Positions 11,424-27,219 of a stretch of DNA of 64,000 nt are shown here, in pieces (positions within the stretch are counted from its first letter, which is position 1; each line of letters starts with the position of its first letter). A model generated the notes under the pieces. The model was not told the DNA's origin. It did no database searches and was given only the letters and a program-made list of their open reading frames with translations. Where the stretch lies: NCBI RefSeq assembly GCF_036507355.1, contig NZ_AP027877.1. One strand, given 5' to 3'. Position numbers and translations under genes: made by a program. This stretch comes from Escherichia coli (lineage in GTDB: Bacteria; Pseudomonadota; Gammaproteobacteria; Enterobacterales; Enterobacteriaceae).

Positions 11424-14400
11424 ATGGCAGGGAAAGCGCATGGGAATGGCGATAGTCGGGGCGATAACACCATATGTGGATTGGGGGATCGTTTACGTCG
11501 TCTGACCGCCGGTATTTGCCTGATAACACAAACTATATTCCCTGTTATGGCCGCTGCCCCTACGCATATTAATCATGCGCGTTCGGATACTGCCACGTCC
11601 CTGATCCTGCCGAACGTTAAAACTATTCCATATACCCTGGGGGCATTGGAATCGCCATCAACGGTCGCGGCACGCTTTGGTATCACCGTTGATGAATTAC
11701 GTCGCCTGAATCAGTTTCGTACCTTTGCGCGGGGCTTTGACAATGTGCGTCAGGGCGATGAAATAGATGTGCCCCTCATTAACAGTAATAGCCCTGAAGC
11801 GCGCAACCTGAAAGCAATGCAGATGGAGCGCGACGGCAAAGATCCGCAAATGCAGGTCGCGGAAATGGCGCAGCAAAGCGGAACACTTTTAGCTCGCGAT
11901 ATGGACAGCGAACAGGCGGCGAGTATGGCGCGTGGCTGGGTGGCTTCTTCTGCATCTGCGCAGGCAACGGACTGGCTCAGTCGTTGGGGAACTGCCCGGG
12001 TATCTCTTGGTGTGGATGAAGATTTCAGCCTTAAAAGCTCTTCATTTGAATTTCTCCATCCCTGGTACGAAACGCCGGATAACCTGGTCTTCAGCCAGCA
12101 CACACTTCACCGTACGGATGATCGCACTCAAACCAACCACGGTATCGGCTGGCGTTATTTCACCCCGAGCTGGATGTCTGGCGTCAATATGTTTATCGAT
12201 CATGACCTGACCCGCTATCACACCCGAACCGGGATGGGCGTTGAATACTGGCGCGATTACCTGAAACTGAGCGGCAACGGTTATCTGCGCCTCAGTAACT
12301 GGCGTAGTGCACCGGAACTCGACCATGACTATGAAGCACGTCCAGCGAACGGTTGGGATCTTCGCGCCGAAGGCTGGTTACCGGCCTGGCCGCAGCTGGG
12401 CGGCAAGCTGGCCTATGAACAATATTATGGCGATGAAGTGGCGCTGTTTGGTAAAGACGAGCGACAAAATGATCCTCACGCGATTACCGCAGGTTTGAGT
12501 TACACCCCTGTTCCTCTGATCTCCTTTAGTGCCGAGCAACGGCAGGGCAAACAGGGAGAAAACGACACCCGAATTGGTATGGAGTTGACGTTGCAACCTG
12601 GTCATTCACTGCAAAAACAGCTCGATCCGGCTGAAGTTGCAGCACGACGCAGCCTTGTGGGCAGTCGCTATGACCTGGTCGATCGTAATAACAATATTGT
12701 CCTCGAATATCGCAAGAAAGAGCTGGTGCGGCTGACGCTGACCGATCCGTTGAAAGGCAAGCCGGGTGAGGTGAAATCGCTGGTTTCTTCCTTACAGACC
12801 AAATATGCGCTGAAAGGTTATGACATTGAAGCCGCCTCCCTGCAATCAGCGGGCGGAAAAGTAGCTGTTTCCGGCAAGGATATTCAGGTCACTATTCCTC
12901 CCTACCGATTCACGGCAATGCCTGAAACCGACAACACTTACCCGATAGCGGTTACAGCGGAAGATTCGAAAGGAAATTTCTCCCGGCGTGAAGAAAGTAT
13001 GGTGGTCGTGGAAAAACCCACATTAAGCCTCGCCGATTCAACGCTTTCTGTCGATCTGCAAATCCTGCTTGCTGATGGAAAATCAACCTCAATGCTGACC
13101 TATACCGCGCGAGATTCCAGCGGCAAGCCAATCCCAGGTATGACGTTAAAAACACAGGCGAAAGGTTTGCAGGATTTCGCCTTAAGCGAATGGAAAGACA
13201 ACGGTAACGGAACCTATACCCAAATAGTTACCGCCGGGAAGACGTCTGGCGCGTTATCGCTGATGCCGCAATTTAACGGCGACGATATCGCTAAGACGCC
13301 AGCGCTGATTGCTATCGTGGCGAATACGGCATCCCGCGCTGACTCCACGATTGAGACAGACCAGGATAATTACGTCGCGGGTAAGCCGATAGTCGTTAAA
13401 GTGACCCTGAGAGATGATAACGGCAACGGGGTTACCGGACGAAAAGAGCTTCTCAAACAAACCGTTAAAGTAGACAACACGAAGGCTGATGCCGTTAGTG
13501 CCTGGACGGAAGAAAGTGAGGGAATTTACAAAGCAAGCTATACGGCCCATCTCATTGGCGACAAATTAACGGCCCAGCTGACGATGCCCGGCTGGCAAAC
13601 CAAACATTCGGATGCGTTCAGTATTGCGGGTGATAAAGATACCGCCAAAATCGCTGCGATGCAGATCACCGCGAATAACGCAGTTGCCAGACGCGATCAC
13701 AATACCGTCGCTGTGACGGTCAGGGATGTGCATCAAAATTTATTGCAGGGACAAAATGTTACCTTCACGGTCGTGAATGGTGCGGCGGTTTTTGCCGATC
13801 CGAATGGCGGTATTGTGACGACAGATAAAGACGGGATAGCCAGCGTTAACCTTGCCAGTGACCAGGCGGTAAACAGTCTTATCAAGGCCGAGATCAATGG
13901 CAGTAGTCAGTCTGTGGAAGTGAGCTTTATCACTGGCGATATCTCGCAGCTGACCTCCACCATCAAGACGGACGATGTGTCATACACTGCGGGTGGCAAG
14001 ATAAAAGTGTCCGTCACCCTTATGGATGAGCAGAAAAACCTGGTGAAAGGGATGGCTTCGCTGCTGGCGGGTAGCGGTGTGGTCGAGGTGAGCGGTACAG
14101 ATAAAAATGAAACGGGTAACTGGAGCGAAGAGTCTGACGGCGTTTACACCACCACCCGAACCGCGAAGATTGCTGGCGATCGCCATTACGCCACGCTGAA
14201 ACTATCGACATGGAGTAGCGCGCAGCAATCCGATGCGTATGCCATCCGCGAAAGCGGAGCTGTGCTGGCTTATTCCTCCATCGTTACCGACAAAACGACC
14301 TACACCGCGGGCGGCGTGATAAAAGTTACGGTAACACTCAAGGATAGCTATGAAAACCTGGTCGGGGGGCAACGAGACGCTATCAACCAGGCTATTCAGC

Positions 14401-26721: not shown

Positions 26722-27219
26722 TCACTCTGTTTGAACTTCCTCTTCGGTGTTGGCTGTCAAAAGTTCAAGATAAGCAGTAGCCATCTCTTTAACTTTTTCA
26801 TTTTGACTGTAGGTTACGACTGTATTAAATAACTCCGTGGCCATTTTAATGTTTTTTAAGCCCATCTGGCATTGACCCATATAATAAACCAAAGAGAAAT
26901 CGTTATCGGGAGATAGCATTAAACAGATATGATACATGTCAAATGCCTTTTGATAATCTTTCTTCAACTGACAAACGGCGGCATATCCTTTTAAGTAGTT
27001 ATAATTTTGGAAATCATAAATACAGAGAAATTTAAAAAAGAGTTCAGCTTCGTCAAGTCTTCCTTTTTCATAAAAGTTATAAGCGTAAGCATAAACGCCT
27101 TCAAGGGTATCCGGAGTAATGCCATGCAGCTCTGCAAGTGTTGCTCCCATACCTAGTGCACGTTCGAACTTACTGGCAATTTCTTTATTTTCTTCTAAAT
27201 CCAGATTTGCGCTTTCCAT
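26722..27219 (-). CDS. eicA: Class II type III secretion chaperone (SicA/IpgC/LcrH family, TPR)
   Basis: 165-aa acidic TPR protein, same length as SicA, directly upstream of the SipB-like gene. Confidence 0.8.
   Translation of the reverse strand: MESANLDLEENKEIASKFERALGMGATLAELHGITPDTLEGVYAYAYNFYEKGRLDEAELFFKFLCIYDFQNYNYLKGYAAVCQLKKDYQKAFDMYHICLMLSPDNDFSLVYYMGQCQMGLKNIKMATELFNTVVTYSQNEKVKEMATAYLELLTANTEEEVQTE

Follow-up and report, generated by a model that had tools for sequence, protein, structure and literature searches.

The window analyzed here, a stretch of 64,000 nucleotides of Escherichia coli DNA, carries a 16.3-kb island between nepI and yicS, near tRNA-Sec. The island encodes an inverse-autotransporter adhesin (EaeX/Air/IatC), the regulator EilA, the translocon proteins of eipBCD, and the chaperone EicA (Table 1). 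Open reading frames, Pfam matches, and annotated matches agreed with the gene identities that had been proposed in an earlier sequence-only reading of the same DNA. Alignment of the flanks with the island-free strains L003 and L004, in which the gap between nepI and yicS is about 48 bp, ran up to position 11222 and resumed at 27523. The site adjoins nlpA-yicL-setC-selC, with tRNA-Sec at 31701 to 31795; the prophage-like selC-A island is absent, and yicJ directly follows selC. The island flanks were 97 to 99% identical to K-12-like strains, and the backbone was 95 to 99% identical to E. coli. Divergent flanks as a sign of a host other than E. coli were ruled out because the values of 87 to 91% came from short terminal pieces.

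This is not a new locus: it is the eip/selC-B island of E. coli, the identity and position of which have been published (PMC7058095, PMC2808357, PMC11068852). In EAEC 042 this island comprises eaeX/air, eilA, eipD, eipC, eipB, and eicA (Fox 2020, PMC7058095). The island in the window lies at the same chromosomal site, from nepI/yicM to yicS and three genes from selC, and has the same genes, order, and orientation, as judged from open reading frames and Pfam matches here and from annotated genomes including 042. The order eaeX/air(iatC)-eilA-eipD-eipC-eipB-eicA was confirmed, and positions 20227 to 29967 were 97.0% identical to an air-type strain. The two islands differ in the adhesin: air of 042 is 11,421 bp (3,806 amino acids), whereas the window has a 2929-amino-acid, IatC-length allele with 11 array copies. 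Earlier accounts of the EAEC 042 island are reportedly those of Ren 2004 and Sheikh 2006, and descriptions of the island, of its genes, and of its regulator date back to 2004 to 2006. In the literature on the eip/selC-B island we found no mention of a three-part composition within the adhesin gene.

The adhesin has the organization of a type Ve autotransporter, with an N-terminal inverse-autotransporter beta-barrel (PF11924, IAT_beta, E = 6.9e-108) at residues 148 to 423 and a passenger of Ig-like repeats, 14 stretches of which matched Big_1 (E = 2.3e-257) and 17 of which matched Invasin_D3. Its tip appears to be an invasin/intimin-like, C-type-lectin-like D4-D5 region, as suggested by a match to Invasin_D4 (PF21764) and by a match to residues 296 to 460 of 1CWV, the Yersinia invasin that the tail matched in sequence with an E value of 1.1e-17. 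In EilA the Trans_reg_C domain at residues 31 to 104 is followed by TPR matches, the arrangement of HilA-family regulators (about 550 amino acids with an OmpR/ToxR-type winged helix). EilA was 99% identical to the EilA cluster P0001, and its homologues are annotated as HilA/EilA family. Homologues of eipB are annotated as SctE/YopB family, and the eicA orthologue in 042 is EC042_RS21295. No Pfam family matched eipC, which is annotated as hypothetical in the matching genomes. The small open reading frame between eicA and eipB is frameshifted, and annotated as a pseudogene, in strain 042. The AT-rich stretch upstream of eicA is presumed to be the eip promoter region.

Table 1. Features of the eip/selC-B island in the window. 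The z scores compare observed GC3 with that of the same amino acids encoded with codons drawn from E. coli backbone usage.
Feature	Position	Strand	GC	GC3	GC3 z	Basis or remark
Whole eip/selC-B island	11223..27522	.				Insertion relative to island-free E. coli; nepI stop 11222, yicS end 27523
Inverse-autotransporter adhesin EaeX/Air/IatC, 2929 aa, intact	11424..20213	+	0.541	0.594		ORF, Pfam; iatC/air in matching genomes
Anchor module (signal region, beta-barrel, first three Ig domains), aa 1-743	11424..13652	+	0.523	0.534	+0.2	Native-like codons
Four single-copy Ig domains, aa 744-1148	13653..14867	+	0.528	0.580	+2.1	GC near backbone
GC-rich tandem array, 291-bp (97-aa Big_1) unit	14868..18073	+	0.613	0.754 (0.558 expected)	+15.9	TRF: period 291, 11.0 copies, 83% matches
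Transition zone, two to three Ig domains	18074..18899	+				GC drops from backbone level to AT-rich
AT-rich tail (last Ig domains and invasin-like D4/D5 tip)	18900..20213	+	0.412	0.362	-6.5	Composition, Pfam Invasin_D4
Hairpin, 10 pairs, between convergent adhesin and eilA stops	20227..20250	+				Candidate bidirectional terminator; consensus match only
eilA, HilA-family regulator, 565 aa	20263..21960	-	0.357	0.318	-9.6	Trans_reg_C and TPR
Terminator-like hairpin, 3' of eipD, upstream of eilA	22109..22131	-				Consensus match only
eipD, IpaD/SipD-family needle-tip protein, 449 aa	22163..23512	-	0.400		-5.7	Pfam T3SS_TC, E 6.6e-34
eipC, positional SipC/IpaC equivalent, 374 aa	23556..24680	-	0.354	0.261	-9.1	ORF
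eipB, SipB/YopB/SseC-family translocon subunit, 593 aa	24693..26474	-	0.401		-8.4	Pfam T3SSipB, E 2.1e-9
Small 60-aa ORF between eicA and eipB	26530..26712	-				Intact here; hypothetical in L001
eicA, SycD/LcrH-class translocator chaperone, 165 aa	26722..27219	-	0.365		-4.3	Pfam TPR_3, E 2.3e-17
AT-rich stretch upstream of eicA to right island edge	27220..27522	.				Breakpoint 27470, edge at 27523

The sequence-only reading had set a GC-rich adhesin against AT-rich regulator and translocon genes. The computed GC contents bore out this contrast (0.541 for the adhesin versus 0.375 for eilA to eicA; chi2 = 424, p = 2.8e-94), and the two parts are not statistically indistinguishable. The eilA and translocon-chaperone genes were AT-rich as described (GC of 0.354 to 0.401, GC3 of 0.26 to 0.38), and the off-island part of the window had a GC content of 0.511 (1.5-kb windows, standard deviation 0.038, range 0.427 to 0.584). 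The further claim that the GC content of the adhesin is like or above that of the backbone held for positions 11424 to 14867 (0.525, backbone-like) and for the array but not for the 3' end (0.424 at 18701 to 20213). Maximum-likelihood segmentation of positions 5001 to 33000 placed breakpoints at 14922, 18900, and 27470, which delimit segments with GC contents of 0.509, 0.597, 0.380, and 0.460; neither the adhesin/eilA junction (20213/20263) nor the left island edge (11223) received a breakpoint. The expected seam between adhesin and eilA was thus not observed; the break lies inside the adhesin open reading frame. Change points in GC3 alone within this frame were at 14880, 18012, and 18519. In the transition zone GC3 was 0.548, 0.535, and 0.435 in successive domains. 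The change points computed from GC3 (18519) and from all codon positions (18900) put the onset of the tail at about 18519 to 18900. Because the contrast is real and the break is within a gene rather than between genes, these results refine a known locus and do not define a new system.

The adhesin gene contains three codon "dialects": a native anchor, a GC-rich array, and an AT-rich tail. The apparent GC richness of the adhesin traces to a single GC-rich 291-bp tandem array, each copy of which has a GC3 of 0.69 to 0.85. As a control, K-12 yeeJ, which encodes an adhesin of the same family that has no T3SS link, was uniform, with a GC3 of about 0.51 and no tandem array.

The anchor and the tail also differed in their relationships. 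These were compared as pairwise identities among three lineages, rather than as full trees with support values. The anchor (nucleotides 910 to 2229 of the gene) of the window was 91.8% identical to that of a cryptic Escherichia clade locus (L007) and 76.0% identical to that of E. albertii at the nucleotide level. The corresponding identities were 64.7% versus 74.8% for eilA and 65.6% versus 71.1% for eicA, and those of the tail, 49.9% versus 59.5%, gave the same grouping as eilA and eicA. Thus, the anchor is closest to the clade with the most distant eilA, and the relationships are reversed. With pairwise identities in three lineages only, the anchor appears incongruent and the tail congruent with the T3SS genes, and the adhesin gene as a whole would therefore not have a single history. 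The proposal of two acquisition histories was partly right in that the anchor and the AT-rich genes differ in history. However, the tail groups the lineages as eilA and eicA do and the anchor does not, which makes the junction intragenic, and the linkage is old. Composition and relationship both support assignment of the 3' 1.3 to 1.7 kb of the adhesin gene to the AT-rich T3SS block, of which it would be a part. The low divergence of the anchor could in part reflect purifying selection on the beta-barrel instead of recombination, but nucleotide identities of 92% versus 76% with reversed relationships are hard to explain by purifying selection. The chimera may have arisen from an AT-rich ancestral gene in which the 5' end was replaced or from a resident gene that was given an AT-rich 3' end; either direction would fit.

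Within E. coli, identity was about 98% for the anchor, 85% for the array, and 90% for the tip. Most of the 753 E. coli carriers had an anchor with an identity of about 98.3%, and the array was present in 751 genomes at only 80 to 90% identity, with a median of 22 places per genome. The last 400 or so nucleotides of the tail vary by allele, coverage of at least 80% being reached in only 85 of 742 genomes, and a baboon isolate has a tip allele with 99.9% identity to the one in the window. The single-copy Ig domains at residues 744 to 1148 had only about 41 to 42% amino acid identity to the E. albertii and L007 adhesins.

The GC-rich array could have come from a unit that was already GC-rich when imported, or its GC content could have been raised by a recombination-linked bias. 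The second possibility is part of an explanation in which the island was acquired once and then changed in place, with no recombination between loci: repeat-associated biased gene conversion would have enriched the array in GC, and under strong selection the anchor would have drifted to host composition. The E. albertii adhesin has an array of 309 bp x 4 that is nonhomologous to the E. coli 291 bp x 11, and the finding that these two independent arrays both have a GC3 of about 0.75 to 0.78 fits such a process, as do the lower values of the nearest single-copy homologous domains (0.53 to 0.62, and 0.42 for the domain adjoining the E. albertii array) and the co-occurrence of the parts as one indel. 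However, changes away from the array consensus were more often S to W (79) than W to S (37), with an implied equilibrium GC of about 0.45; by this crude star-phylogeny estimate the array is decaying from a GC-rich ancestor rather than undergoing continued enrichment. Furthermore, the stalk of a Citrobacter inverse autotransporter has a GC3 of 0.61 to 0.73 without a DNA-level tandem repeat, drift to host composition should not end sharply within one open reading frame, and the reversed relationships of the anchor and eilA oppose a history without recombination. We therefore consider change in place after a single acquisition unlikely. A search of genome contigs with an array profile revealed no close GC-rich donor; the four loci that matched were two E. 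coli-like contigs in a "Collinsella" metagenome-assembled genome and the same 53%-identical match in Citrobacter and "Chryseobacterium" assemblies. A protein search with three array units returned E. coli fragments only, which is uninformative on the donor, and a literature search on biased gene conversion together with tandem repeats and adhesins gave nothing relevant.

The four island segments were found in 746, 742, 753, and 751 of 5,426 complete E. coli genomes; about 14% of E. coli genomes carry the adhesin, eilA, and eip parts together. The adhesin-only genome AST85 represents a deletion that fused a truncated iatC to a remnant of eicA. An adhesin of the same family accompanies eicA-eipBCD-eilA at the same site in E. 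albertii and at yjiJ in the cryptic Escherichia clade. This linkage persists although identity across the three lineages is only 26 to 31% for EipB and EipC and is 56 to 76% for EilA. The E. albertii orthologue is the same three-part mosaic (GC3 of about 0.5 at the 5' end, 0.77 in the array, and 0.29 to 0.33 in the tail), and the cryptic-clade adhesin has a body with a GC3 of about 0.5 and a tail of 0.25 to 0.33. Y. enterocolitica and E. fergusonii have deeper relatives of EilA, which lie within complete, AT-rich islands of the SPI-1-like type with no adhesin nearby. The sequence comparisons indicate that the linkage of adhesin and T3SS genes is old rather than a chance juxtaposition. Independent distribution of the modules was not found: they occur jointly in E. 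coli, the exception examined is a deletion, and the linkage extends to E. albertii and the cryptic clade. If a GC-rich adhesin gene and an AT-rich set of regulator and translocon genes had been acquired separately and joined at the gene boundary, this might account for the overall GC contrast, for the different lineage relationships of the anchor and eilA, and for the gene order of the cryptic-clade version, which is not that of the E. coli/E. albertii version. Separate acquisition of this kind is quite improbable, however, given a break at 18519 to 18900 rather than at 20213/20263, a tail with the codon bias and lineage relationships of eilA and eicA, adhesin-only genomes that are deletion derivatives, and a linkage kept in three deeply diverged versions.

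A further explanation is that the GC differences reflect only amino acid composition and function, an Ala/Gly/Thr-rich Ig stalk versus Lys/Asn/Ile-rich T3SS proteins with no historical signal. In its favor, GC1 and GC2 do differ somewhat, and amino acid content by itself predicts a GC content of 0.550 for the array and 0.42 to 0.46 for eilA, eicA, and the eip genes. This explanation is nonetheless barely credible and was rejected: with amino acids fixed, the z score of GC3 was +15.9 in the array and ranged from -4.3 to -9.6 across the tail and the T3SS genes, same-fold Ig domains in one gene have GC3 values of 0.55, 0.75, and 0.33, and yeeJ is uniform.

Control of AT-rich T3SS islands by H-NS is textbook material. 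The AT-rich block of the island, with a GC content of 0.380 compared with 0.511 for the backbone, has the low GC of H-NS-silenced xenogeneic DNA, and 37 of 40 promoter-like sites were within 19418 to 27056. Matches to an H-NS motif were about 3 times, and A/T tracts about 2 times, as frequent as in the backbone, with TpA density also in the 2- to 3-fold range; a scan with a 10-mer motif is close to a readout of composition and is therefore taken as consistency only. In an RNA-seq study of a 042 delta-hns mutant, eicA (EC042_RS21295) was upregulated 15.6-fold at 37 C and 22.9-fold at 25 C (PMC7582179, Table 2B), expression support that covers one gene in one strain. Thus, the proposal that the AT-rich part is silenced by H-NS is supported for eicA only, and for the remainder of the block it is plausible. 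We found no H-NS ChIP data for the island in the literature, and PMC5570504 does not mention the locus. No report of interplay between EilA and H-NS was found either, and the literature yielded nothing that speaks for or against the counter-silencer role that the sequence-only reading had suggested for the regulator; papers that include both describe H-NS on ygeH and ETT2 only. Repression of ygeH and ETT2 by H-NS has been described, as has the ability of EilA to substitute for HilA in Salmonella (PMC4210603). As cited in later papers, Sheikh 2006 found EilA in strain 042 to be an activator of eaeX, the eip genes, and two genes of ETT2 (PMC4210603, PMC7058095).

The known eip/selC-B island is probably a three-part, not a two-part, mosaic. 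The first part would be a contiguous AT-rich block from about 18.5/18.9 to 27.5 kb that consists of the eicA-eipB-eipC-eipD operon, eilA, and the last 1.3 to 1.7 kb of the convergent adhesin gene, which is predicted to encode an invasin-like receptor-binding tip. This block may have been drawn from the SPI-1/ETT2-type T3SS gene pool and appears to have been kept together, physically and evolutionarily, in three Escherichia lineages. The second part would be the anchor with the proximal Ig domains, in native E. coli codons, swapped by homologous recombination among Escherichia inverse-autotransporter genes; such exchange would give the anchor a history unlike that of the tail. The third part, the array, would form the stalk, its composition being that of one amplified Ig unit. 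H-NS would silence the AT-rich block, as published for eicA and as is plausible for the remainder, and the HilA-family activator EilA would switch on the block and also the adhesin, as later papers relate for strain 042. EilA may act through displacement of H-NS.

The Salmonella SPI-1 genes sicA-sipBCD and hilA, and the SPI-1-like islands of Y. enterocolitica and E. fergusonii, likewise combine a SycD-class chaperone, proteins of the SipB and SipD families, and a HilA-family winged-helix-TPR regulator in AT-rich DNA. In contrast to SPI-1-type islands, the eip island is a satellite that lacks a secretion apparatus, which is elsewhere, in ETT2, and is coupled to an inverse-autotransporter adhesin. 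The hilA-like genes of Yersinia and E. fergusonii adjoin iagB/prgHIJK/org genes and have no adhesin nearby, unlike the eip island. In LEE the intimin gene eae is within an AT-rich, H-NS-silenced T3SS island and is co-regulated by an island-encoded activator. The eip island likewise links an inverse-autotransporter adhesin to T3SS genes in AT-rich DNA, with an island-encoded activator. However, no Tir-like receptor gene is known for the eip island (PMC2808357). LEE differs further because in the eip island the AT-rich composition is limited to the tail of the adhesin rather than extending over the whole gene. Rhs and polymorphic-toxin loci have a conserved GC-rich core and variable AT-rich C-terminal tips. 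The adhesin may be analogous to them as one open reading frame with a conserved 5' part and an allelic AT-rich 3' tip of other history, but the proteins are unrelated, and the adhesin has no toxin/immunity pair and has an invasin-like binding domain as its tip.

With this corrected anatomy, the AT-rich and presumably H-NS-bound domain should take in the 3'-terminal 1.3 to 1.7 kb of the adhesin gene, and the anchor probably has a recombinant history apart from that of the tip. Therefore, H-NS ChIP or RNA-seq over air/iatC can be expected to reveal silencing inside the gene, together with spurious promoters in its tail. Adhesin typing is also affected because anchor, array, and tip evolve at unlike rates. 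The old linkage of adhesin and translocon genes raises the question of whether the tip cooperates with the ETT2/eip translocon. One tentative and rather doubtful extension is that the receptor-binding tail belongs inherently to the T3SS translocator module and diverges along with it, with only the anchor and stalk as an interchangeable "chassis," and that, separately, tandem amplification of Ig units goes with a recombination-linked shift to high GC3, as in the E. coli and E. albertii arrays. If the tail does co-diverge with the translocators, a functional partnership of tip and translocon of the intimin-Tir kind would be implied.

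The window backbone was that of E. coli, with 95-99% identity to 5,424 of 5,426 complete genomes. Alignments of island-free strains stopped at the nepI stop codon (11222) and restarted at the end of yicS (27523). Thus, the island is one 16.3-kb insertion, three genes from tRNA-Sec. Gene identities were assigned from open reading frames (ORFs), Pfam domains, and annotated matches. The island is the eip or "selC-B" island of EAEC 042 and ST69 (PMC7058095, PMC2808357, PMC11068852), and its layout in strain 042 (EC042_RS21295 to RS21320) is identical to that in the window. The selC position differs: 042 has an 11-kb integrase-bearing element there, whereas the window (31100-31800) lacks the selC-A island: yicJ comes directly after tRNA-Sec, and nothing but a rhuM pseudogene remnant separates setC from selC. 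The locus has already been described, and what is novel is descriptive: an intragenic seam, the array behind the high GC content, and a recombinant anchor.

Features of the island and its surroundings, with composition and GC3 (third-codon-position GC) deviation
Feature	Position	Strand	Basis	GC	GC3 deviation (z)
RelE/ParE toxin and HTH antitoxin pair	9451-9810 and 9144-9467	-	ORFs
Inverse-autotransporter adhesin, 2929 aa (EaeX/Air/IatC in the literature)	11424-20213	+	ORF, Pfam, annotated matches	0.541
Adhesin anchor	11424-13652				+0.2
Adhesin single-copy Ig domains	13653-14867				+2.1
Adhesin tandem array	14868-18073				+15.9 (observed 0.754, expected 0.558)
Adhesin transition	18069-18899				-0.4
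Adhesin tail	18900-20210				-6.5
eilA	20263-21960	-	ORF, Pfam, annotated matches	0.357	-9.6
eipD	22163-23512	-	ORF, Pfam, annotated matches	0.400	-5.7
eipC	23556-24680	-	ORF, annotated matches	0.354	-9.1
eipB	24693-26474	-	ORF, Pfam, annotated matches	0.401	-8.4
60-aa ORF between eicA and eipB	26530-26712	-	intact in window; annotated frameshifted pseudogene in 042 (EC042_RS31660)
eicA	26722-27219	-	ORF, Pfam, annotated matches	0.365	-4.3
tRNA-Sec	31701-31795

Two other elements were observed in the window. The RelE/ParE-HTH pair, between yicN and nepI (region 9102-9943), was present in the island carriers examined (PapRG-04-4, 042, and AST85) and missing from both of the island-free strains that were examined; the pair may move together with the island haplotype. 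Downstream of dinD, a stretch of lower GC content (0.42-0.47; approximately 51000-57000) matches a small element whose products are DUF927, toprim, and HTH proteins and several hypothetical proteins; it resembles a P4-like satellite or primase island. A 24.5-kb query containing it was at least 80% covered in only 33 genomes.

The sequence-only reading had set a GC-rich adhesin gene against AT-rich regulator and translocon genes. The contrast is real (adhesin versus eilA-eicA, chi2 = 424, p = 2.8e-94), but the boundaries assigned to it were wrong. Maximum-likelihood segmentation of 5001-33000 placed breakpoints at 14922, 18900, and 27470 (segment GC 0.509, 0.597, 0.380, and 0.460); neither the adhesin/eilA junction nor the island's left edge coincided with a breakpoint. 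Third codon positions alone gave change points at 14880, 18012, and 18519 within the adhesin ORF, and the seam lies inside that ORF at 18519-18900. For comparison, backbone GC was 0.511, with 1.5-kb windows spanning 0.427 to 0.584. The GC-rich segment is a tandem array of 11.0 copies of a 291-bp (97-aa Big_1) unit, with a GC3 of 0.69-0.85 in each copy.

Expected GC3 was calculated by keeping the amino acids and drawing codons according to the usage in 28 backbone genes of E. coli. The resulting segment z-scores indicate that the adhesin gene is written in three codon dialects and that its last 1.3-1.7 kb is part of the AT-rich block. K-12 yeeJ, a member of the same adhesin family with no type III secretion (T3SS) link, is uniform, with a GC3 of about 0.51, and lacks a tandem array; the three-part pattern is not a general property of the family. 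It recurs in the E. albertii adhesin (GC3 about 0.5 in the 5' part, 0.76-0.78 in the array, and 0.29-0.33 in the tail). A further adhesin comes from a strain labelled E. coli whose yji flank is just 92.7% identical to K-12, indicating that the host belongs to a cryptic Escherichia clade. Its layout is again similar, with a GC3 of about 0.5 in the body and 0.25-0.33 in the final 300 codons.

Pairwise nucleotide identities among the three lineages were incongruent between segments. The anchor (gene nt 910-2229) was 91.8% identical to that of the cryptic clade and 76.0% identical to that of E. albertii. The corresponding values were 64.7% and 74.8% for eilA, 65.6% and 71.1% for eicA, and 49.9% and 59.5% for the tail. 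From these identities the tail appears to track the T3SS genes, and the anchor appears to have a separate, more recent common ancestry. The comparison of adhesin and translocon phylogenies that the sequence-only reading had suggested thus has a mixed outcome, and its proposal of two acquisition histories holds insofar as there are at least two, with the seam within a gene rather than between genes. Homologous exchange between Escherichia members of this adhesin family would best account for the history of the anchor; the nucleotide identity of the anchor to yeeJ is 67-72%. Within E. coli, identity was typically 98.3% in the anchor, 94-97% in the eip block, about 90% in the tail, and 80-90% in the array. 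The last ~400 nt of the tail (C-terminal tip, 19820-20213) are allelic: most carriers matched only positions 1-1084 or 1-1120 of the tail query, which was covered to at least 80% in only 85 of 742 genomes. A baboon isolate (strain A30) carries a tip allele with 99.9% identity to that of the window.

The evidence is divided on whether a repeat-linked process made the array GC-rich. The E. albertii array (L005 13256-14504; 309 bp, 4.0 copies, 98% identical) is independent and nonhomologous at the nucleotide level, and its GC3 is also high, about 0.77, while the paralogous Ig domain directly after it has a GC3 of 0.42. In the closest single-copy homologues of the two units, GC3 is 0.53-0.62. However, departures from the E. 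coli array consensus ran from G+C to A+T 79 times versus 37 in the opposite direction, which counts against continuing enrichment. The equilibrium GC crudely estimated from these counts, near 0.45, suggests decay from a GC-richer founder unit. Furthermore, the array codons ACG, GCG, GTG, CGG, and AGG, read directly from the sequence, are outside the set translationally preferred in E. coli, and GC3 reaches 0.61-0.73 in a Citrobacter adhesin stalk that lacks a repeat at the DNA level. Neither a protein search with the array units nor an array-profile scan of genome contigs found a close GC-rich donor. Public assemblies labelled Collinsella sp. (MAG) and Chryseobacterium sp. 18061 (L012, L013, and L014) contain enterobacterial adhesin contigs, either sharing 82-88% identity with the array unit or giving the same match as the Citrobacter locus; these are probably contamination or misbinning.

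The AT-rich block contains 37 of the 40 promoter-like sites of 11-28 kb. Its density of H-NS motif matches is about three times that of the backbone, and its density of A/T tracts about two times. Judged by motif content, the block has features typical of H-NS targets, and the sequence-only reading had taken it for a likely target. In published RNA-seq of a 042 Δhns strain, EC042_RS21295 was among the most upregulated genes, with fold changes of 15.6 at 37°C and 22.9 at 25°C (PMC7582179, Table 2B), and this locus tag maps to eicA in the 042 annotation. These data support H-NS silencing of eicA, and we infer it for the rest of the block. Repression by H-NS also extends to ygeH and ETT2, and in Salmonella EilA can substitute for HilA (PMC4210603). 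EilA activates eipB, eipC, eipD, eicA, eaeX, and the ETT2 genes eivF and eivA (Sheikh 2006, as cited in PMC4210603, PMC7058095, and PMC11068852). The literature searched for H-NS at the island yielded neither ChIP data nor an experiment setting EilA against H-NS. Hypothetically, EilA might act as a counter-silencer.

The adhesin and T3SS genes are carried together. Their counts among the 5,426 complete E. coli genomes are nearly equal: 746 genomes have eilA-eicA, 742 have the adhesin tail, 753 have the 5' part of the adhesin gene, and 751 have its array. An apparent adhesin-only genome, AST85 (L016 6437-12154), carries a natural deletion: eilA and eipBCD are gone, and a 3'-truncated iatC is joined to the remaining 153 bp of eicA. 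In the closest full-length match, PapRG-04-4 (L001 8426-17213), the adhesin is annotated as two coding sequences (iatC, 5.2 kb, and an Ig-like protein, 3.5 kb) and is thus interrupted, whereas that of the window is intact.

In E. albertii, the genes for the EilA homologue (76% amino acid identity), eicA-eipBCD, and a convergently transcribed adhesin of 1763 aa occupy the same chromosomal site as in E. coli. In the cryptic clade (L006/L007 1-11692), a second, deeply divergent module (EilA 57% and EipB 27% identical) is inserted at yjiJ in the order adhesin, IS remnant, eicA-eipBCD-eilA. This yjiJ module was found in none of the 5,426 complete E. coli genomes, and no published description of it was found in the literature searched. 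Identities across the three versions were 26-31% for EipB/EipC, 40-45% for EipD, 55-72% for EicA, and 56-76% for EilA; despite the low translocator identity, the adhesin linkage was kept in all three. The more distant EilA relatives of Y. enterocolitica and E. fergusonii (51-54% identity) are encoded by hilA within SPI-1-like islands that are complete and AT-rich (hilA-iagB-prgHIJK-org) and have no adhesin gene in the vicinity. The adhesin-T3SS linkage is old and specific to the satellite module.
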